A stretch of 64,000 bases of DNA from an uncultured Candidatus Saccharibacteria bacterium (GCA_964391975.1 CAYMNZ010000001.1:15280-79279), one strand, 5' to 3'; positions 4,087 through 59,461 are shown, counted from the stretch's first letter. Program-made: numbers and translations. The notes: generated by a model not told the origin, from the letters alone.

Positions 4087-4117
4087 TAAAAAGAGCCGCA
4101 GATGCGGCTCTTTTTAT
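4087..4117. terminator. bidirectional Rho-independent terminator after fusA
   Basis: aaaaagagccgca-gat-gcggctctttttatt; a perfect hairpin flanked by an A-run and a T-run; the minus-strand gene ends at 4117. Confidence 0.8.
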
Positions 4118-4671
4118 TATTGTGCCTCTGCTGCTTTTTCTTCGAGGACTCGCGTGGACTCAGTTTGGAGTATGCGGGTAAGGGAGCTGTCGAATTCGTC
4201 TGATGTTATCCCGAAGGTCGAGCGGAACTCGGCGCGCAGTTCGCTTACATAGCGGTACCCGAGGGCGAATGACACCCGTACGTCAGAGGTAGCCGCGTGT
4301 TCGGTCGCTTTAGCGTGGTCAAAGAGCGCGTCGTAATGCTTTTTCACTATCGTGTCGATGATGGGGCTACGGTCATTGGGGTGGAGGCTATCGATGAGCT
4401 TGTGCAACTTGTTTGTCGCCTCACCTTGTCCGAGCTTCGCATTCTGTTCGGCGGCCAACAGGCGTTCAGGCTCGATGGGAGGTACTGAGGTAGCGTTCAC
4501 AATCTGGAGCGCCTCCTCGATTTTCATTCTTTTCTGCTCTGCGGGATTTTTCCCTCCTTGTTCCACTCTGGCGCTCATAGACGTTACTTGGTCAGTTACA
4601 GGGGATAGATACTCAGTGTACACCCACCGTCTTCCTTGGAGGGAGGACAAGATAGACTTTATCCCCGTCAT
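4117..4671 (-). CDS. hypothetical protein between fusA and tuf (opposite strand)
   Basis: 184-aa ORF, no family recognised; bounded by the fusA terminator and a ~210-nt divergent intergenic region upstream of tuf. Confidence 0.5.
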   Translation of the reverse strand: MTGIKSILSSLQGRRWVYTEYLSPVTDQVTSMSARVEQGGKNPAEQKRMKIEEALQIVNATSVPPIEPERLLAAEQNAKLGQGEATNKLHKLIDSLHPNDRSPIIDTIVKKHYDALFDHAKATEHAATSDVRVSFALGYRYVSELRAEFRSTFGITSDEFDSSLTRILQTESTRVLEEKAAEAQ

Positions 4672-4883
4672 CCACAGCCGGGCCTAAGGTTGACCCCTCC
4701 CGCCCCTTCCTGTAGGTTAGCTAGTAACGCGGTACGGCGCTCTTTGTAAACTTTCCCCATACGGGACAGGTCTATGAAGGCGTCGCGCGGGTATTCCGTC
4801 CGACGCCTTGGTTGTTATATGCCTCCCGGCCTGTAACAGGTGAGCGGTACTGATTAGAAACTTAGACGTAACGTAAACATTGT

Positions 4884-6080
<1,197 letters not shown>

Positions 6081-6096
6081 GCCAGGTATCACTCGT

Positions 6097-6453
6097 ATGG
6101 CCACCAAAGCTACCAAGACCCTGAAGAAAGAAGCGTCGGCTCCAACCGAGCCGAAGCTCCGCATCCGGGTCCGCGCCTACGAGCACAAGATTCTCGATCT
6201 CTCGGTAAAGCAGATTATGGACACCGCTAATCGCTTCGAAGCGAAAATCGTTGGCCCCGTTCCGCTCCCGACTGAGATAAAGCGATGGACCGTGAACCGC
6301 TCAACGTTCGTCCACAAGGACGCACGCGAGCAGTTCGAAATGCGCATCCACAAGCGACTCATCGATATCCTCTCCCCGAATCCGAAGGTCATCGAGGCTC
6401 TCACGAACCTCAACCTTCCATCCGGAGTGACGATTGACGTGAAGATGGTCTAA
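6097..6453 (+). CDS. rpsJ: 30S ribosomal protein S10 (with short N-terminal extension)
   Basis: 118 aa; IRVRAYEHKILD...RSTFVHKDAREQFE core; 16 nt after the tuf stop. Confidence 0.92.
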   Translation: MATKATKTLKKEASAPTEPKLRIRVRAYEHKILDLSVKQIMDTANRFEAKIVGPVPLPTEIKRWTVNRSTFVHKDAREQFEMRIHKRLIDILSPNPKVIEALTNLNLPSGVTIDVKMV

Positions 6454-6548: not shown

Positions 6549-6854
6549 ATGGTACGAGAAATTGGAGAAGGCATGCACGACGTCCGTCCACCTCAGAAAG
6601 CGGAGAGGCCGCGCGCGTGGCGCCCGAAGACAGGAGAGGCAATTACCATCACCAAGCGCGGCGGAGGCATCGTTGCACAAGGTCGCCTTGATGCAGACCT
6701 CAACATCATCGATGGCAGACCAGCAGCCTTCCGTATAGGGGGCGCCGCAGAGGACCTTCTCCCAAGCGTGGTGAGTTCAAACCAAGAGGGAAAGAAACTT
6801 GTTGTCGTGACCAAGAAAGGAATCTTTGAGATAAATAAGGAGACCGTTCACTAA
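6549..6854 (+). CDS. hypothetical protein (first of three genes inserted between rpsJ and rplC)
   Basis: 101-aa ORF followed by its own terminator; start may be the internal Met (MHDVRPP, near 6573). Confidence 0.45.
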   Translation: MVREIGEGMHDVRPPQKAERPRAWRPKTGEAITITKRGGGIVAQGRLDADLNIIDGRPAAFRIGGAAEDLLPSVVSSNQEGKKLVVVTKKGIFEINKETVH

Positions 6855-6900: not shown

Positions 6901-7863
6901 ATGTTTGAGCGGAAAAACCCCATTCCCAAGCTGAGCGAGCAACGGAAGCGAGAAAAGGCAAAGTATCGAGATGAGGGGCTCAAAAGGAATGCGAAGGATA
7001 GGCGCGAGCAGCTGTTGTACTCAGATCCCCTTGGCTACCTCGGGGATTTACTCACCGGCAAACTTCCAACCGCTAAACAACTTGGTGAAGAGCTGAAAGC
7101 ACGCGATCAGGAGCGCCTTAAGAAACTAGTGCTAGAGGCGAAAGATGCGGCGCGCATTATGATGCTCGACGATGCGACGAGCTATCGCGCACACGAAATG
7201 GAACACGAGCTTCCGATGGTAGAGCTTGGGGCCTGGCTAGAGGGTGCCCTACGAGAGGGGAAGCTGCCAGATACTATCATTGCTGAGGACGTTACGGGTC
7301 GACCGCTGGCGCAGATATGTCGCACCCTCCTCACGCTCCTGAACAAGAGAATCCATCCCGATGCTGAAAATGTACCAGTTATCTCGTATGCGGTTGGACG
7401 ATATACGTCGCCCACGTTGGCGAAGCAACTCGCCCAGGGCGTGGCACAGAAGCTTGAAAAGCGAGGTGCGCGCAATGTGCTGGTCTGCACCGATGCTGTT
7501 GAGACTGGAAGCTCGATGGGCCCGCTGCTCACTGAAATTGGAGGACAATCGTACTCTCTCGCTCTTATGATAGATAGGATTACTCCACGCGCCGAGACGA
7601 TGATACTAGAACGTACGGAGAAGAATCCGGCCGTGCACATCTCGCTTCACCCAGATATGGATATTGGACAAGATTCAGTACTTATCATGCGTACGCTCGA
7701 GCGTCGGTATAAGAAAAACGCTGATTACAGAGACCTCCTCCTGGTGATAGAAGAGCTAGAGAACCGCCCGTACCGCCTCCAGGCAATTGAAGAGATTGCC
7801 AACGTGCTTTATGAAACCTTCCTCGAACGCCCTGGGGTGCAACAGCTCTTGCCCGCTCAGTAA
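6901..7863 (+). CDS. hypothetical protein with a C-terminal type I phosphoribosyltransferase-like PRPP-binding motif
   Basis: 320 aa; motif NVLVCTDAVETGSSMG resembles the PRTase signature (compare comF in this window: IVVDDVLTTGSTL); ~190-aa N-terminal extension of unknown type. Confidence 0.5.
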   Translation: MFERKNPIPKLSEQRKREKAKYRDEGLKRNAKDRREQLLYSDPLGYLGDLLTGKLPTAKQLGEELKARDQERLKKLVLEAKDAARIMMLDDATSYRAHEMEHELPMVELGAWLEGALREGKLPDTIIAEDVTGRPLAQICRTLLTLLNKRIHPDAENVPVISYAVGRYTSPTLAKQLAQGVAQKLEKRGARNVLVCTDAVETGSSMGPLLTEIGGQSYSLALMIDRITPRAETMILERTEKNPAVHISLHPDMDIGQDSVLIMRTLERRYKKNADYRDLLLVIEELENRPYRLQAIEEIANVLYETFLERPGVQQLLPAQ

Positions 7864-7878
7864 GGGTATACTTTTCGC

Positions 7879-8238
7879 ATGGCTTCTCCAGAAACTCCTA
7901 CGCACTCGGCTAACAAGGACATTCCAACTCTTTCGGTTGCGGCCATTGCTACTGAATACAAAGACATACTCGACCGCTACAATCGGTTCATTGATTCTCA
8001 GATGGTTGCGCTTGGGAAGCCAAAGGAGGTGGTAGAAGAACCCCCTCCGAGCGAACAGGCACGCGGAGAACTGCTCTGGAAGGAGCTTCTCCGGAGGGCG
8101 GTTGCCGGGAACGCCGAAGCCAAGCAGGCCATTATCGAGATTGATGTAGATGATGAGCTCAAAGAGCCTGATGGCTCTCTGAGCAAAGAAACGCTTCAGC
8201 GCCTTCTCGACTCCTCTGACACTCTGGCGGACGGCTAG
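7879..8238 (+). CDS. hypothetical acidic protein
   Basis: 119-aa ORF, co-directional, 15 nt after the preceding gene; no family recognised. Confidence 0.45.
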   Translation: MASPETPTHSANKDIPTLSVAAIATEYKDILDRYNRFIDSQMVALGKPKEVVEEPPPSEQARGELLWKELLRRAVAGNAEAKQAIIEIDVDDELKEPDGSLSKETLQRLLDSSDTLADG

Positions 8239-8356
8239 CTTGCGCTTTTTAGGCCCCGCCTGTATAGTCCTCGAAACGCTACGTACCTCCTCGGAGGGAC
8301 CAATGGCCGGAAAGGGGAGACCCTCTACGCGCTATTGAAGGCGCGTTTTCCATTTC

Positions 8357-8970: not shown

Positions 8971-9732
8971 ATGGCAACTACCAAAAAGACAACCGTAAAG
9001 AAGACAGCCCCTAAGAAGGCAGCAGCACCACGCGCAAAGAAGGCGCCTGAGATTACCGCCGGCAAGGACGAGGCAGTTGTCTTCGGCATGGATGGCTCTA
9101 AGAGTGGCACCGTCGCTCTTCCAGCAGAGCTCTTCGGCGTGCAGTGGAACGCAGACCTCGTACACCAGGTCGTCGTTGGTATGCAGGCAAACGCTCGCCC
9201 AACGGTCGCTAACACCAAGTTCCGCGGTGAAGTATCCGGAGGAGGAAAGAAGCCGTGGAAGCAGAAGGGTACGGGACGCGCTCGTCACGGTTCTAACCGC
9301 TCCCCAATCTGGGTAGGTGGAGGTACCTCTCACGGCCCTCGCGCAGAGCGCCTCTACACCGTGAAGATCAACAAGAAGATGCGCACCGCCGCTCTTATGT
9401 CAGTTCTTTCTCGCAAGATGAAGGATGGTGAAGTGATTCTTGTTGAGAAGATGTCCTTTGGTACGCCAAAGACCTCCGCAGCAGTGAAGACCCTTTCTGC
9501 ACTCGCTAAGGCAGCTGATGCGCCGAACCTCACGAAGAAGCGCGTAAACGCTGCACTCATCGTGCTCTCGGGTAACGATGCGAACGTGAAGAAGAGCTTC
9601 CGCAACATCGGCAACATCACGAGCGAGGAGGTTCGTAACCTCAACCCCGTGGACATCATGAACCGCCGCTACCTCGTGATTGAGAACCCGACGGAATCCT
9701 TTGCGGTTCTTTCCGGCAAACTAAAGAAATAA
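8971..9732 (+). CDS. rplD: 50S ribosomal protein L4 (K/A-rich N-terminal extension)
   Basis: 253 aa; L4 core (GGGKKPWKQKGTGRARHGS) preceded by a ~30-aa Lys/Ala-rich extension. Confidence 0.93.
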   Translation: MATTKKTTVKKTAPKKAAAPRAKKAPEITAGKDEAVVFGMDGSKSGTVALPAELFGVQWNADLVHQVVVGMQANARPTVANTKFRGEVSGGGKKPWKQKGTGRARHGSNRSPIWVGGGTSHGPRAERLYTVKINKKMRTAALMSVLSRKMKDGEVILVEKMSFGTPKTSAAVKTLSALAKAADAPNLTKKRVNAALIVLSGNDANVKKSFRNIGNITSEEVRNLNPVDIMNRRYLVIENPTESFAVLSGKLKK

Positions 9733-9735
9733 TTT

Positions 9736-10092
9736 ATGGGACTCTTTTCATCCGACAAGAAGAAAGTAACGAAGACCAAAAAGGTCTCGAAGGCAAAGAA
9801 GCCTGCAGTCATGAACGCTAACACCGTGCTTAAAGCACCGTGGATGAGCGAGAAGGCACTCATTGGTACCGAGAAGGGCGTCTACGTCTTTGAGGTACCA
9901 CCTGAGGCAACCAAGACCGATGTCATTGCTGCTATGGAGACCATCTACAAGGTCACGCCTCGCCAGATTCGCATGGTGAACCTTCCAGGTAAGCGCAAAG
10001 CTCTTCGCCACAAGCGCGGTATGGGAACACGTGCACGCCGCCACAAGGCCTACGTCTACCTCAAGAAGGGAGACACCATCACCCTCGTCTAA
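9736..10092 (+). CDS. rplW: 50S ribosomal protein L23
   Basis: 118 aa; position and sequence (YVFEVPPEATKTDV) match L23. Confidence 0.9.
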   Translation: MGLFSSDKKKVTKTKKVSKAKKPAVMNANTVLKAPWMSEKALIGTEKGVYVFEVPPEATKTDVIAAMETIYKVTPRQIRMVNLPGKRKALRHKRGMGTRARRHKAYVYLKKGDTITLV

Positions 10093-10103: not shown

Positions 10104-10946
10104 ATGAAATCCTACAAACCGTACACCAAGAGCCGCCGTGGCATGACCACACTGCCGTACAAGCAGCTTCTTTCCGGTGACCGCCCATTCAAGGCCCTCT
10201 TGAAGGCGAAGAAGGACCAGGCAGGACGCAACTCCCAGGGCCGCGTTACTACGCGCCACCAGGGAGGCGGCCACAAGAAGCGCCTTCGCGATGTCGACTT
10301 CCAGTACAACAAGAAGAACATCCCGGCGAAGGTTGAGACTATCGAGTACGATCCATACCGTACCGGTTTCATCGCGCTTGCGCTCTACGCAGACGGCGCT
10401 CGCCGCTACGTGCTCGCACCTAAGGACCTTAAGGTCGGCGACAGCTTTGTTGTCTCTGAGGACGCACCAGTTAAGACTGGTAACCGCATGCCGCTTGGCA
10501 AGATTCCTACCGGTACCTTCGTGTACAACATCGAGCTCCAGGTTGGAGCCGGCGCACGCCTCGCTCGCTCTGCAGGTAACTATGCAGAAGTCATCGCGCA
10601 TGACGCAGGCTATGCGCAGATCAAGCTTCCTTCGACTGAGGTCCGCAAGGTCTCTGACCTCTGCTGGGCATCCATCGGTGCAGTGGGCAACGAAGAGAGT
10701 CGCCTCGTGAAGTATGGAAAGGCAGGACGCTCTCGTTGGAAGGGTATTCGCCCTACGGTGCGTGGTACGGCTATGAACCCGGTAGATCACCCACACGGAG
10801 GAGGTGAAGGACGTCAGGGTCGTGGTCTCCGTCGTGCAAAGACTATGTGGGGCAAGCCATCCGGCAAGGGACAGAAGACTCGTACGCCGAAGAAGTACTC
10901 GAACTCACACATCGTTTCTCGCCGAAAGGTTGGCAAGAAGGGATAA
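10104..10946 (+). CDS. rplB: 50S ribosomal protein L2
   Basis: 280 aa; GRNSQGRVTTRHQGGGHKK and C-terminal GGGEGRQG motifs. Confidence 0.96.
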   Translation: MKSYKPYTKSRRGMTTLPYKQLLSGDRPFKALLKAKKDQAGRNSQGRVTTRHQGGGHKKRLRDVDFQYNKKNIPAKVETIEYDPYRTGFIALALYADGARRYVLAPKDLKVGDSFVVSEDAPVKTGNRMPLGKIPTGTFVYNIELQVGAGARLARSAGNYAEVIAHDAGYAQIKLPSTEVRKVSDLCWASIGAVGNEESRLVKYGKAGRSRWKGIRPTVRGTAMNPVDHPHGGGEGRQGRGLRRAKTMWGKPSGKGQKTRTPKKYSNSHIVSRRKVGKKG

Positions 10947-10948
10947 GC

Positions 10949-10978
10949 AAAAGACCGGGGTTGACCCGGTCTTTTTTG
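10949..10978 (+). terminator. Rho-independent terminator after rplB
   Basis: aaaagaccgggg-ttga-cccggtcttttttgtt. Confidence 0.8.
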
Positions 10979-10990
10979 TTACGTTTCTTG

Positions 10991-10996
10991 TATAAT
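10991..10996 (+). promoter_or_regulatory. candidate -10 box (TATAAT) 6 nt upstream of the ATG of the PEK-repeat micro-gene
   Basis: A perfect TATAAT hexamer only 6 nt before the ATG (11003) implies a transcript start at or next to the start codon (leaderless mRNA); no convincing -35. Confidence 0.3.
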
Positions 10997-11002
10997 TACC
11001 CT

Positions 11003-11206
11003 ATGCCAGCCCCAGAAAAACCAGAGAAACTGCAGAAAAAGAAACCAGAGAAACCAGAGAAACCAGAGAAACCAGAGAAACCAGAGAAACTGCAGAAAAA
11101 GGAATCAGATCCAGTTGAGGAAGTAGATACCTCTAACGAAGACCACTGGTTTGGTAGCGACTCATCAATGGGTCCTCGGTACGATAACGAGAGCGAAGAA
11201 TTTTAA
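11003..11206 (+). CDS. small protein with (PEKPEK)n tandem repeats
   Basis: 67 aa: MPAPEKPEKLQKKKPEKPEKPEKPEKPEKLQKKESDPVEEVDTSNEDHWFGSDSSMGPRYDNESEEF. The ORF-track ORF 10847..11206 overlaps the rplB 3' end and was trimmed to the internal ATG behind the TATAAT box. Own terminators on both sides. Confidence 0.5.
   Translation: MPAPEKPEKLQKKKPEKPEKPEKPEKPEKLQKKESDPVEEVDTSNEDHWFGSDSSMGPRYDNESEEF
11018..11100 (+). repeat. 9-bp tandem repeat (aaaccagag)n with two aaactgcag variants, coding
   Basis: Seen directly: aaaccagag x1, aaactgcag, aaaaag, aaaccagag x5, aaactgcag; encodes PEK/LQK repeats. Confidence 0.9.
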
Positions 11207-11218
11207 GAAGCGGTAGAT

Positions 11219-11250
11219 AAGAACCCTGCAGATGCAGGGTTCTTTCTATT
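11219..11250. terminator. bidirectional terminator between the PEK gene (+) and the DUF3298-like gene (-)
   Basis: agaaccctgca-gat-gcagggttctttctatt. Confidence 0.7.
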
Positions 11251-12049
11251 GGTACTTCGCTTTCAGTATTGCAGAGAGTTCGCTCTTCGGAAGGCGCACT
11301 TCCTGCATTCCGAGCGCCCACGGGCCTACCTGATACGGAGCGAAGATGATAACGAGCGCATTCCCCTCAAGGTAGAAGTTGAGGTAGTTGTCCTCGTCAG
11401 GGGTCGTGCCCGCGTCAATCATGTCCATATTGAGCTCTGACTCGCTTACGCCTGATACCTCTGCAATCTGTGTCACGAGCTTCGCGCGAGAGCTTGATGA
11501 GAGTCGTGCAAGGTAGTCGCTTCCAGGAACGAAGAGGTCTCCGAGCGTGAGTCCCTCACCGGTTTCCTTGTCGAAGGTGAAGGTGCGGTAGTAGGCGTTG
11601 GGGTGCGCGCCAAGGGTATCTGCGTACATGAGATAGACGTACGAGACAGTTGAATCGGAGGTGTGGAGCTCGTACTCCATACCGAAGGCATACTTTCTCT
11701 CACCACCAAGTCCCTGCACCTCAATGTCTTCCGCAGAAAGGGAAAGCAGCTGGTTCTCCTCCTTGAAGGACTCGACTGATATTTCCGCGAACTGCTTCAT
11801 GACCTCAACGGCGTGTGCATCGGCTCCAGCGCCTGCTGACGCCCTGAGTGGGGTCTGATTGGGGTATGCCGCCTCAATCTCCCAATACTGCTCGTTCTCC
11901 CTAATAACCCCTGCTTCCGCCTGTGGCTCTCCTACCTGAGGAGCAGGCACCTCAGGGGCAGGAGTGCTGGCCATATACCAGATAAGGGCGCCCAGGATGA
12001 TAATGATGAGGGCGATACCCCCGATAAGTAGCTTCTTGTTGGTGTCCAT
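11246..12049 (-). CDS. membrane-anchored DUF3298/DUF4163-like protein (RsiV-type C-terminal domain)
   Basis: 267 aa; N-terminal TM helix (LLIGGIALIIIILGALIWYM); C-terminus ...NYLNFYLEGNALVIIFAPYQVGPWALGMQEVRLP matches the DUF3298 motif. Confidence 0.6.
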   Translation of the reverse strand: MDTNKKLLIGGIALIIIILGALIWYMASTPAPEVPAPQVGEPQAEAGVIRENEQYWEIEAAYPNQTPLRASAGAGADAHAVEVMKQFAEISVESFKEENQLLSLSAEDIEVQGLGGERKYAFGMEYELHTSDSTVSYVYLMYADTLGAHPNAYYRTFTFDKETGEGLTLGDLFVPGSDYLARLSSSSRAKLVTQIAEVSGVSESELNMDMIDAGTTPDEDNYLNFYLEGNALVIIFAPYQVGPWALGMQEVRLPKSELSAILKAKYQ

Positions 12050-12102
12050 ACCTCTCTATACTACCCCCTACCCGGAAGGAATCATGAAGAATAGGCCGTA
12101 AT

Positions 12103-12129
12103 TTGACACTACGCCCTCTTTCCTATAGA
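12103..12129 (+). promoter_or_regulatory. candidate sigma70-like promoter upstream of rpsS (TTGACA-15nt-TATAGA)
   Basis: TTGACA at 12103-12108 and TATAGA at 12124-12129 in the 121-nt gap that restarts the r-protein cluster; the 15-nt spacer is short of optimal. Confidence 0.3.
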
Positions 12130-12170
12130 TTTCACCTATCCCGCGACGCGGGCTTTTCATTGCTTAACTC

Positions 12171-12524
12171 ATGTCTCGCTCCCTCAAGAAAGGACCGTAT
12201 GTGGACGTCAAACTCCTCAAGAAGGTCAAGGACAAGAAACCAGCTTCGGCGGGGGTAATTAAGACATGGGCCCGCAATTCCCAAATCGCACCTGAGTTCG
12301 TCGGCTTCACGTTCGGCGTTCACAACGGAAAGACCTTCGTAGATGTCCTCGTCACCGAGGACATGGTGGGACACCGCCTTGGTGAGTTCTCACCTACCAA
12401 GAAGTTCATCCGCCACGGAGGAAAGATGCAGAAGGAGCTCGAGCAGAAGAAGAAGGACTCTGAGATTGCAGCCGCTAAGGCTTCCAAGGAGCCTGCTGCC
12501 GCAGCCCCTGCCAAGAAGAAATAA
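12171..12524 (+). CDS. rpsS: 30S ribosomal protein S19 (K/A-rich C-terminal extension)
   Basis: 117 aa; [11 protein letters not shown]...[18 protein letters not shown] core plus a ~25-aa tail. Confidence 0.94.
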
Positions 12525-15773: not shown

Positions 15774-15802
15774 TTGACACTGACCTTCACTGTTGATACA
15801 TT
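15774..15802 (+). promoter_or_regulatory. candidate internal promoter between rplE and rpsN (TTGACA-17nt-TGnTACATT)
   Basis: TTGACA at 15774-15779, a 17-nt spacer, then an extended -10 TGaTACATT at 15794-15802, inside the 71-nt rplE-rpsN gap. Confidence 0.35.
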
Positions 15803-15832: not shown

Positions 15833-16102
15833 ATGGCCAAAAAGTCCCAAATCGCCCGCAACAATAAGCGTATGAAGCTCGTCGCTCAGTACGCTGTTAA
15901 GCGTGCCGAGATGAAGAAAGCAGGGGACTTTGAGGGCCTACAGACGCTTCCGAAGAACTCCTCCCCAGTCAGGGTTAAGAACCGCTGCTCGATTACGGGC
16001 CGTGGTCGCGGGTACCTCAGGGCCTTTGGCCTTTCCCGTATCCAGTTCCGCGAGATGGCCCGCCAGGGCAAGATCCCGGGCGTAAAGAAAGCATCATGGT
16101 AA
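15833..16102 (+). CDS. rpsN: 30S ribosomal protein S14
   Basis: 89 aa; ...[40 protein letters not shown]-terminus. Confidence 0.9.
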
Positions 16103-40113: not shown

Positions 40114-40120
40114 GTTGTGT

Positions 40121-40529
40121 TGTGGAGGTGGGGAGAATTGAACTCCCGTCCGAATCCGTCTTCGACAGCGACTCTACGACGCATAGTCCTGGTTAGAGAC
40201 TGGGGCAGGGTGCGAGGAACCAGAACGAAACCACTCCTGCCTGATCCCTTATTTAGAGAATACGTTCGGGAGGACGTACCTCGATTCCCTAGATGATTCC
40301 ACCCGGGCCGGACACTACGGAAGCTGAGCCGGTCGGATGTCGCTTAGGCGAGGCGTTTATGCAACGCGCGCGTAAGCGAACGCGAAATCGGACTTACTAA
40401 AGTAAGGCGAGATCACGCTTGCAAGAGTGTTCTTGGCAAGTTTGGGTGCCTGCGGGATTAAGGTGGTCAGCAGACTTCCACCGCGTCGCACGTCTGTCAA
40501 AGAGCAGACCGTCAAAACCGGTCACCCCC
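40121..40529 (-). ncRNA. ssrA: tmRNA (transfer-messenger RNA)
   Basis: Minus sense 5' GGGGGTGACCGGTTTTGACGG... (compare E. coli GGGGCUGAUUCUGGAUUCGACGGG) and 3' ...GGACGGGAGTTCAATTCTCCCCACCTCCA (T-arm plus acceptor). The acceptor pairs GGGGGTG/CACCTCC with G3-U70; CCA not encoded; directly downstream of smpB. Confidence 0.85.
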
Positions 40530-43335: not shown

Positions 43336-43412
43336 TGGTCCACCCGCTTGGACTCGAACCAAGGACCCTCGAGGTATAAGCTCGATGCTCTAACCAGCTG
43401 AGCTACGGGTGG
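43336..43412 (-). tRNA. tRNA-Ile with anticodon UAU (reads AUA); CCA encoded
   Basis: Minus sense CCACCCG-TA-GCTC-AGCTGGTTA-GAGC-A-TCGAG-CTTATAC-CTCGA-GGGTC-CTTGG-TTCGAGT-CCAAG-CGGGTGG-A-CCA. Full cloverleaf; anticodon loop CU-UAU-AC; discriminator A. Confidence 0.8.
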
Positions 43413-59371: not shown

Positions 59372-59461
59372 TGGCGGAGACGCAGGGATTCGAACCCTGG
59401 AGAGCTTTTACACCCTACCTCGTTAGCAGTGAGGCGCTTTCGACCACTCAGCCACGTCTCC
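59372..59461 (-). tRNA. tRNA-Ser (anticodon GCU), class II with long variable arm; CCA encoded
   Basis: Minus sense GGAGACG-TG-GCT-GAGTGGTCGAA-AGC-G-CCTCA-CTGCTAA-CGAGG-[18-nt variable arm]-CAGGG-TTCGAAT-CCCTG-CGTCTCC-G-CCA. Confidence 0.85.

Follow-up and report, generated by a model that had tools for sequence, protein, structure and literature searches.

Why should a gene for a short, repetitive peptide lie in the middle of a ribosomal-protein cluster, between rplB and rpsS? The question is raised by positions 10947-12170 of a 64,000-nt stretch of contig CAYMNZ010000001.1 (the window), where a 67-codon open reading frame (ORF) built in part on a 9-bp tandem repeat, here called the micro-ORF or micro-gene, is followed on the opposite strand by the gene for a membrane-anchored DUF3298 protein. 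Judged by rplB, the closest genomes (60-87% identity) belong to the Paceibacteria/Parcubacteria group of the Patescibacteria, with Kaiserbacteria, Nomurabacteria and Zambryskibacteria among them, and the window genome is placed in the Paceibacteria (Parcubacteria, candidate phyla radiation). The answer that we favour, with moderate confidence, is that the micro-gene is a young, weakly constrained orphan, probably expressed independently and encoding a disordered peptide, which occupies a fast-turnover slot at a break in the cluster that is typical of the class.

The slot is bounded by two predicted terminators. The first, T1 (10949-10977, plus strand), directly follows rplB and consists of a GACCGGG/CCCGGTC stem (10953-10959 and 10965-10971) with a GTTGA loop and a run of six T; it folds at -19.5 kcal/mol (z -4.3), and none of 200 shuffled sequences was equally stable. 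The second, T2 (11219-11244), is bidirectional and common to the micro-gene and the convergent DUF3298 gene: its 12-nt arms (11219-11230 and 11233-11244) are 100% complementary, it folds at -28.4 kcal/mol on the plus strand and -25.5 kcal/mol on the minus strand (z -6.2 and -6.4), and it has T-rich tails on both strands. Both elements have the GC-rich stem-loop and U tract of an intrinsic terminator and are stabler than shuffles; they were missed by a simple terminator scan because their stems run into A and T tracts, and folding was used in its place. Between them, the micro-ORF (67 aa, MPAPEKPEKLQKKKPEKPEKPEKPEKPEKLQKK followed by ESDPVEEVDTSNEDHWFGSDSSMGPRYDNESEEF) occupies 11003-11206 on the plus strand. 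A gTATAAT box at 10990-10996 (TATAAT at 10991-10996), with no recognisable -35, stands 6 nt upstream of the ATG at 11003-11005 (not 11004), and the transcription start predicted from it is the A of that ATG. At the other end the stop codon lies 12 nt from the T2 stem, so that the ORF spans the promoter-to-terminator space. The original prediction had described this arrangement, with a hairpin terminating rplB, a TATAAT box 6 nt 5' of a 67-aa ORF carrying a 9-bp repeat, a bidirectional terminator behind it and a 267-aa membrane-anchored DUF3298 protein on the opposite strand, and every one of these features is present, with coordinates within two bases. A fusion of the micro-ORF to rplB by frameshifting or read-through was considered, the frame being open from 10847, and rejected: the frame of the micro-ORF differs, T1 intervenes, and relatives are without the feature.

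Can a bare -10 box so close to a start codon serve as a gene start in this genome? A TA[TCG]ANT hexamer stands 6 nt before an ATG in 10 cases in the window, against about 1.5 at spacings of 10-35 (Poisson p 5e-6), and nine of these ten sites open ORFs of at least 60 codons, mostly evident gene starts. More generally, TAnnnT is found 5-9 nt 5' of 22 of 59 inferred gene starts, compared with 4% of random positions, and Shine-Dalgarno (SD)-like 4-mers show no enrichment at the same starts (8 of 59, versus 14% at random). On one strand, chance alone would place a -10 hexamer 6-8 nt ahead of an ATG about 0.011 times per 300 nt. The combination of a -10 box at the start and no SD sequence is found both in the TATAAT-N6-ATG of the micro-ORF and in the TAGTAT-N8-ATG of the DUF3298 gene (box at 12058-12063, minus strand), and in 66 of 73 distinct 5' regions of DUF3298 orthologues an in-frame start has a -10-like hexamer, usually TATACT, 5-9 nt ahead of it, against 9 of 365 random regions. 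Given this leaderless rule, the TATAAT-N6-ATG of the micro-ORF counts as the standard gene-start signal of the genome, a conclusion well supported by the positional statistics; the proposal that the micro-gene is leaderless thus holds up, its geometry being the dominant start type.

The anti-SD motif has been reported missing in about half of Parcubacteria (PMC9297842), and our literature search found no description of leaderless architecture in Patescibacteria. Two promoter classes can be distinguished in the window, namely -35-less G(G)TATACT boxes at leaderless genes, and TTGACA with a weaker -10 at leadered ribosomal units. Leaderless mRNAs have been mapped in Mycobacterium, Streptomyces and Deinococcus; Cortes 2013 is among the work cited in PMC12641261. 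As in those organisms, the -10 lies about 6-8 nt before the start, there is neither a 5' untranslated region nor an SD sequence, and many small ORFs are involved, whereas the evidence here consists of positional statistics and signal conservation in relatives, and the box is of the G(G)TATACT type with no -35.

Of the three reading frames, the annotated one has the best codon usage: a codon model built from 32 genes of the window gives it 0.219, the other two coming out at -0.43 and -1.55, and this score is matched by 0 of 3000 off-frame windows and 7% of antisense windows of equal length. Within the frame lies the tandem repeat (11012-11090, plus strand; Tandem Repeats Finder period 9, 9.1 copies, 84% matches), whose unit AAACCAGAG is read K-P-E; five perfect copies stand at 11042-11086 and another at 11018, and the window contains the 9-mer 7 times, where 0.64 occurrences would be expected. 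The repeat has the higher-order form (PEK)2-LQKK-K-(PEK)5-LQKK, and the N-terminal 33 residues that it dominates, PEK repeats with LQKK(K) punctuation, are basic, their net charge being positive. Of the 34 residues in the C-terminal half, 12 are acidic and 1 is basic, and W, F, Y and a terminal F are present as well; the stretches ESDPVEEVDTSNEDHWFGSDSSMGPR and YDNESEEF are part of the peptide, and KPDPAEEVDTSNEDPWFGR is allele-specific. The peptide has no hydrophobic segment and no evident export signal, and AlphaFold gives it no secondary structure (predicted template-modelling score 0.13). We infer a cytoplasmic, disordered polyampholyte whose length would be tuned by slippage.

In-frame variable-number coding repeats are well known, as are Pro-Glu/Pro-Lys spacers such as that of TonB. 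The micro-peptide resembles them in having a unit that is a multiple of three, a copy number that varies in frame, and a proline- and charge-rich, extended character; it differs in that it is not embedded in a larger folded or surface protein, has no signal peptide or anchor, and constitutes a whole product of 52-67 residues with no homologues. A reading of the 9-mer as an iteron or DnaA box was rejected, the unit being unlike TTATCCACA and the cumulative GC skew having no turning point near 11 kb. As a separate observation, three ribosomal proteins of the cluster, uL23 (9736-10092), uL4 (8971-9732) and uS19 (12171-12524), have Lys/Ala/Pro-rich terminal extensions similar in composition to the PEK arm.

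How the micro-gene behaves over short evolutionary times can be read from a second allele, P0121, which encodes 52 aa and is present on three contigs (independent assemblies) of the same metagenome series, in the same context with diverged flanks. It is exactly 45 bp shorter than the window allele, or five repeat units, and keeps the frame; T1, TATAAT, ATG and stop are conserved, T2 is kept with two base changes, and the 56 nt 5' of the ATG differ by a single change. The original prediction had suggested that the repeat copy number could vary between strains, and it does so between co-occurring ones, by a multiple of the unit and with the reading frame intact (67 against 52 aa; 45 bp, 5 x 9), as in a variable-number coding repeat. 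The two alleles represent distinct strains and not assembly variants, because rplB differs between them by 12 synonymous changes and no nonsynonymous one. Proteins identical to the DUF3298 protein and the micro-peptide come from 13-14 contigs of one JGI metagenome series and matching SRA runs, the micro-ORF being predicted as a gene on 13 contigs; Logan short-read contigs stop within the repeat, which is what either a polymorphic site or a perfect repeat of 45 bp would lead one to expect. The samples are from mats, under JGI accessions 3300015360, 3300020180, 3300020192, 3300020195, 3300020213 and 3300022222 and SRA runs SRR6448209-13. The five perfect copies suggest that the window allele expanded recently. 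The polymorphism itself is observed; replication slippage would be its mechanism.

Outside the repeat, constraint on the peptide appears slight. The 35 non-repeat codons show 6 nonsynonymous and 2 synonymous changes, a ratio of nonsynonymous to synonymous rates (dN/dS) of about 0.7, from which a value as low as the 0.08 of the DUF3298 gene (60 synonymous, 21 nonsynonymous changes) is rejected (p 0.0048) and a ratio of 1 is not. The strain comparison thus shows a peptide seemingly under little or no amino-acid constraint, with a non-repeat part that evolves almost neutrally. This weak constraint leads us to regard the micro-gene as accessory or nascent, with at most a composition-dependent role, for example as an electrostatic binder; we think that it is not a conserved part of the ribosome or of an RsiV-type pathway.

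Where, then, did the micro-gene come from? The only homologue of the micro-ORF was P0121, in a word-indexed search of 5.8 billion clusters and an exhaustive HMMER search of 1.84 billion representatives, and it has no match in Pfam, NCBIfam or PHROG. Its GC content, 44% against 54-55% in the genome, and its GC at third codon positions (GC3), 0.43 against 0.63, also speak for a young gene. Beyond the population represented by the two alleles the feature is absent from relatives and the ORF is not found in other species, an outcome that the original prediction had named as one that would tell against it. What close relatives have between equivalent terminators is other small genes of 61-174 aa, with ORFs of 105 aa (loci L094/95), 174 aa (L097), about 80 aa (L099) and 76-111 aa (L105/106), and the slots of more distant relatives contain recurring 2OG-Fe(II) oxygenase, HIT and NUDIX genes. 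In 63 distinct loci its length runs from 14 to 3305 bp; the slot is empty (14-90 bp) in several relatives, and its contents differ even where the DUF3298 protein is 87% identical.

Possible kinship between the micro-peptide and these slot ORFs was examined and set aside. An apparent likeness of its tail, NEDHWFGSDSSMGPRYD, to part of the 105-aa ORF of L095, NEDWLDSGALDPMMDDRGRSYD, is attributed to chance, BLASTP returning nothing at E up to 10, and Smith-Waterman scores of the micro-peptide against five slot ORFs of relatives were unexceptional relative to shuffles (p 0.10-0.58). A shared 'MP...' N-terminus or promoter among slot genes was likewise rejected: DNA homology ends shortly past the terminator. 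The slot ORFs of L099, L105 and L106 are weakly alike (for example, DPSKVTDEMIKETF versus NPEGVTDEMRETF; shuffle p 0.004-0.04), which suggests a fast-evolving small-protein family, with the micro-ORF of the window apparently outside it. Finally, a 27-mer of three AAACCAGAG units has eight exact matches in IMG/VR viral contigs (L186-L193), three of them giant-virus metagenome-assembled genomes; presumably these are unrelated low-complexity coding repeats of the PEK type.

The break in which the slot lies is no peculiarity of this genome. Among 59 loci of species-representative Paceibacteria, retrieved by rplB alone and with both rplB and rpsS present, the rplB-rpsS gap is at least 200 bp in 50 and ranges from 24 to 3384 bp, showing that the break is normal for the class. 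The cargo varies by lineage (a diacylglycerol kinase, an IS200-like Y1 transposase, a PemK toxin, a phosphoribosyltransferase, a mechanosensitive-channel-like protein), and in two loci rplJ and rplL (L10 and L7/L12, by Pfam) lie between rplB and rpsS (L081, ~4998-5865; L083, ~4834-5716). The earlier description of the two genes as inserted here, taken as a local event, does not stand: most of these rplB-selected loci have the gap, and virtually every DUF3298 orthologue, to identities as low as about 40%, is at this site. The accompanying claim that the cluster is divided into separate transcription units is borne out by relatives, in which a terminator-like hairpin lies 3' of rplB in 85 of 131 distinct cases (against 1.2% of shuffles) and a TTGAC-N16/17-TAnnnT promoter lies at most 85 nt from rpsS in 85 of 111 distinct upstream regions.

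Taken as a sequence of events, the reading that we favour runs as follows. The rplC-rplB transcript would end at T1, and gTATAAT, with no -35, would start a monocistronic leaderless mRNA of about 240 nt whose first bases are the AUG at 11003. This mRNA and the convergent DUF3298 mRNA, leaderless as well by its TAGTAT-N8-ATG, would both stop at T2, and rpsS would restart from TTGACA-17-TAGATT, its short leader opening on a stem-loop with a U-rich tract behind it. The product would be a disordered polyampholyte of 52-67 residues in which an arm of Lys/Pro/Glu repeats is joined to a tail that is acidic and aromatic, and the 9-bp repeat of the gene would change length in frame through replication slippage. 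What lies between T1 and T2 differs in almost every relative, and the micro-gene would be a young, population-specific orphan. For an expression unit speak the start geometry, which is that of bona fide genes, and the retention of its signals in the second strain.

Several observations weigh on the other side. The micro-gene is missing from the nearest species-level relatives, including those with 98% identical rplB. Its expression is inferred from sequence signals only, and its promoter has no -35, as is the case for the other leaderless promoters here. The codon score of the ORF is only at the 11th percentile of real genes, and its GC3 is atypical. The repeat is stop-free in every frame and some 35 further stop-free codons are not rare; because the repeat is open in all frames and the remaining codons are unexceptional, the ORF alone is weak evidence. 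The 6 nonsynonymous against 2 synonymous changes would be equally expected of non-coding DNA.

The main rival, which makes most of these points, holds that the micro-ORF is no gene, T1-T2 being a neutral or decaying spacer with a slippage-prone 9-bp minisatellite that yields no stable peptide, and the TATAAT/ATG pairing being chance or a relic of a lost gene's promoter. It would account for a dN/dS indistinguishable from 1, for the lack of homologues in the collections searched, for the low GC3 and codon score, for a repeat whose openness in all frames makes much of the ORF length uninformative, and for slots that are empty in several relatives. We nevertheless consider it unlikely. The spacing of -10 box and ATG is hardly to be had by chance (about 0.011 expected occurrences), nine of ten such sites open ORFs of at least 60 codons, the ORF ends just 12 nt short of the terminator stem, and the annotated frame far outscores the other two; the second strain keeps all the signals, with 1 change in 56 nt upstream, and the slot of close relatives holds clearly coding ORFs of 105 and 174 aa.

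A further rival concerns origin: the micro-gene could have reached the slot as a finished gene, through horizontal transfer or recombination, with a phage or a distant relative as conceivable donors. Its low GC content would fit, and the locus does recombine. Strain divergence along the DUF3298 gene is mosaic (11249-11760 compared with L183-L185), the proportion of synonymous differences (pS) rising from 0.06 in the N-terminal part to 0.42 in the C-terminal half, with a hyperdivergent stretch at about 11690-11760; this points to a recombination tract that would end at T2. Slot contents that differ between loci with 87% identical DUF3298, and the IS200-like transposase in the rplB|rpsS gap of other lineages, also agree with import. 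Against it, the micro-gene is as little diverged between the strains as rplB (pS 0.06-0.10 in the N-terminal part of DUF3298, the micro-gene and rplB, against the 0.42 cited above), none of the collections searched contains a donor-like sequence, the viral 27-mer matches are of low complexity and not shown to be related, and the locus has neither flanking direct repeats nor an integrase. Import of a finished gene therefore strikes us as a poor bet.

Lower still we rank a non-coding RNA, namely an A-rich transcript of about 240 nt whose five AAACCAGAG motifs titrate an RNA-binding protein or pair with targets, the ORF being incidental. The self-contained promoter-terminator unit has the size of a small RNA, the repeated motif could be a binding array, and weak amino-acid constraint would be expected; yet Rfam gives no match even at E up to 5, a complementary CTCTGGTTT site is absent from the 64-kb window, an AUG-first transcript would be translated where the leaderless mode is normal, and the substitutions outside the repeat show no preservation of RNA structure, all of which makes this idea improbable.

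A bolder extension of the orphan-gene reading, which we offer only tentatively, is that the micro-gene has been caught soon after birth, that the slot is a nursery for short ORFs growing by repeat expansion, and that the rplB|rpsS break reflects an undescribed class-wide rewiring of ribosomal-protein expression. In a genome without SD-dependent initiation, a bare -10 box beside an ATG would be enough for expression. If this is true, the unrelated small slot genes of relatives would be successive products of one process.

The neighbour across T2 has a different history. The DUF3298 gene (11246-12049, minus strand) encodes a DUF3298 protein of 267 aa, probably with a DUF4163 domain as well, that matches PF11738 (E 2.4e-15; 57.6 bits against a cut-off of 24.1; residues 171-256) and, weakly and below the cut-off, PdaC/DUF4163 PF13739 (16.4 bits against 29.1), the AlphaFold model aligning over both domains with 3cyg, 3s5t and 5jen. 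The model (predicted local distance difference test 93) shows a transmembrane helix at residues 5-28, a disordered linker at about 29-46 and a two-domain ectodomain, for which Foldseek returns 3cyg (E 1.3e-11), 3s5t (7.5e-11), 5jen (RsiV-lysozyme; 1.3e-9, probability 1.0), 4e72 and 2hhi (MPT64), with the N-terminal domains of PgdA as a further structural match. A profile search of PDB sequences finds 5JEN RsiV at E 6e-7; the best NCBIfam match is the Rv3036c esterase model (E 9e-13, 48 bits against a cut-off of 200), and PHROGs have no match for the protein. It has 180 homologues. A metagenome scan with a 40-homologue alignment returned 80 loci, and in about 70 of these, with identities to the window protein as low as about 40%, rplB and/or rpsS adjoins the gene; wherever both flanks are on the contig the gene is between rplB and rpsS on the opposite strand, and neither ribosomal gene is near only in the most distant matches (35-38%). 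Its position and the low dN/dS show an old resident under strong purifying selection.

The suggestion that this protein is RsiV-like does not survive. RsiV is defined by an N-terminal cytosolic sigma-V-binding domain (PMC5014341), and the window protein can have none because only 4-7 residues precede the helix, which starts at residue 5 in the model and at about residue 8 in the sequence. The NCBIfam RsiV equivalog NF052658 scores 33.5 bits against a cut-off of 250, and there is no sigma-factor gene beside the DUF3298 gene, which in the window, as at about 70 related loci, is surrounded by rplB, the micro-ORF and rpsS. The protein thus shares with B. subtilis RsiV (the anti-sigma-V lysozyme receptor of 5JEN) a single membrane helix followed by a two-domain ectodomain, of DUF3298 and probably DUF4163, but differs in having neither the cytosolic sigma-binding domain nor an adjacent gene for an extracytoplasmic function (ECF) sigma factor such as sigV; judged by its sequence, it is not an anti-sigma factor. 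Its best matches are 3CYG from Fervidobacterium, BF2082 (3S5T), PA4972 (4E72), MPT64/Rv1980c (2HHI), Rv3036c and the N-terminal domains of PgdA/PdaC, every one of them secreted or located in the envelope and without a link to a sigma factor, from which it differs by an identity of only 14-21% and by scores far below equivalog cut-offs; since the functions of these relatives are heterogeneous or unknown, none is transferable. MPT64, with the same fold, does not bind lysozyme, and not all DUF4163/DUF3298 proteins do (PMC5014341). The model is consistent with a type II membrane-anchored envelope protein with an RsiV/MPT64 ectodomain fold and, we would expect, an extracytoplasmic function. It is peculiar to this Paceibacteria clade that the gene has a fixed place between rplB and rpsS, and the name 'RsiV family protein', which automatic annotation gives to these DUF3298 genes, claims more than is known. 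That the micro-gene and the DUF3298 gene form one module, the peptide acting from the cytoplasm as partner or regulator of a membrane protein that senses lysozyme, is hinted at by their convergent arrangement on a common terminator and by the RsiV fold of the ectodomain (Foldseek E 1e-9 to 5jen), but it deserves almost no credence, since the clade keeps the DUF3298 gene but has different slot contents in nearly every relative, and in some an empty slot, so few cytoplasmic residues leave a partner nothing to bind, the equivalog score falls far short (33.5 against 250), no sigma-factor gene is adjacent, and lysozyme binding is not general in the family (PMC5014341).

On the far side of the break, transcription would resume just ahead of rpsS. 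The predicted promoter consists of TTGACA (12103-12108), a 17-nt spacer and TAGATT (12126-12131) on the plus strand (10 of 12 matches in a promoter scan). Of the TTGACA/TATAGA pair proposed earlier, the -35 stands and the -10 does not: the conserved -10 is the overlapping TAGATT, 2 nt downstream, and relatives keep a TAGATT/TATCTT/TACATT register at this position. Behind it, at about +2 of the predicted transcript and 18 nt before the AUG, lies a hairpin not mentioned in the original prediction, CCCGC-GAC-GCGGG followed by CUUUUC (12140-12158, plus strand), that is marked by conservation and covariation. A GC hairpin with a T tract is present in 83 of 83 promoter-bearing relatives, beginning 8-9 nt after the -10 in 66 of them and built from 26 different 5' arms; across Paceibacteria (loci L014-L118) its distance to the rpsS AUG is 10-40 nt, and a covariance model finds one match per locus, just 5' of rpsS. 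In the alignment made with that model, 80.5% of cells are paired, compared with 72.3% in shuffles, and covariation is 0.287 against 0.152 (reached in 0 of 500 shuffles; slid controls at most 0.10), statistics that lean in favour of structure because the alignment is fitted to the model; pair counting on a MAFFT alignment gives a modest signal (76.5% versus 71.7% paired). Rfam has no match in 10900-12250 at E up to 5, and no ribosomal leader at gathering scores in the whole window. In the role that we favour, the hairpin would stabilise the 5' end, ahead of an unstructured U-rich landing site; it may instead be an attenuator or a new ribosomal-protein leader, and it counts against the favoured role that a 5-bp stem with a short, interrupted U tract could serve others.

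The genes on either side are rplB (uL2; 10104-10946, plus strand; Pfam Ribosomal_L2_N E 1e-30, Ribosomal_L2_C E 2e-50), last of the rplC-rplD-rplW-rplB unit, and rpsS (uS19; 12171-12524, plus strand; Ribosomal_S19 E 3e-33), first gene of the next. In E. coli the S10 operon has an L4-controlled leader. The window keeps the order of that operon (rpsJ, rplC, rplD, rplW, rplB, rpsS, rplV, rpsC onward), but divides it into units with their own terminators and promoters and with other genes between: rpsJ, three ORFs, rplC-rplB, the micro-gene and DUF3298 gene, then rpsS onward, with a promoter of the same type before rpsN. The rpsS leader also differs from the S10 leader in being about 33 nt long, with one hairpin and no match to an Rfam ribosomal leader. 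The three ORFs between rpsJ (6097-6453) and rplC (from 8357) lie at 6549-6854, 6901-7863 and 7879-8238 (101, 320 and 119 aa), and a 183-aa ORF (4117-4671, minus strand) lies between fusA and tuf; none of the four has a Pfam or PHROG match, and in two cases a TATACT box stands 6-9 nt ahead of the ATG.

Two further leaders in the cluster were observed. In front of rpsN (S14), TTGACA at 15774 and TACATT at 15797-15802 are followed by a GCTCC-TCG-GAGC hairpin, a U tract and the ATG at 15833; by its sequence this is a further internal promoter of the ribosomal cluster, with what appears to be the same architecture as that of rpsS. Ahead of rplC are a TTGCGC-N17-TATAGT promoter of its own and a structured leader of about 85 nt (window 8240-8356) with a terminator-like hairpin at 8327-8346 and a U tract 10 nt before the ATG; it may be an attenuator of the L4 type that now stands ahead of rplC, rpsJ being separated from rplC. 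Elsewhere in the window, Rfam places at gathering scores a tmRNA gene (40120-40529, minus strand), which some listed ORFs overlap, and tRNA genes at 43339-43412 and 59375-59461 (both minus strand).

As an orphan peptide gene with a repeat-length polymorphism in co-occurring strains, the locus is a clean natural example that should be useful for the study of gene birth in minimal genomes. Its setting has wider consequences. The 'syntenic ribosomal-protein block' used in phylogeny and binning of the candidate phyla radiation is not one operon here: it is cut at rpsJ|rplC, at rplB|rpsS and before rpsN, and the cut points have lineage-specific cargo and their own conserved promoters and 5' hairpins. 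About a third of the genes in this Paceibacteria lineage start directly at a -10 box, so that an ORF behind such a box merits annotation even if it is short, and standard models will put start sites in the wrong place. These SD-free leaderless starts, the fixed break points of the cluster and the conserved rpsS leader may prove more important than the micro-gene itself.

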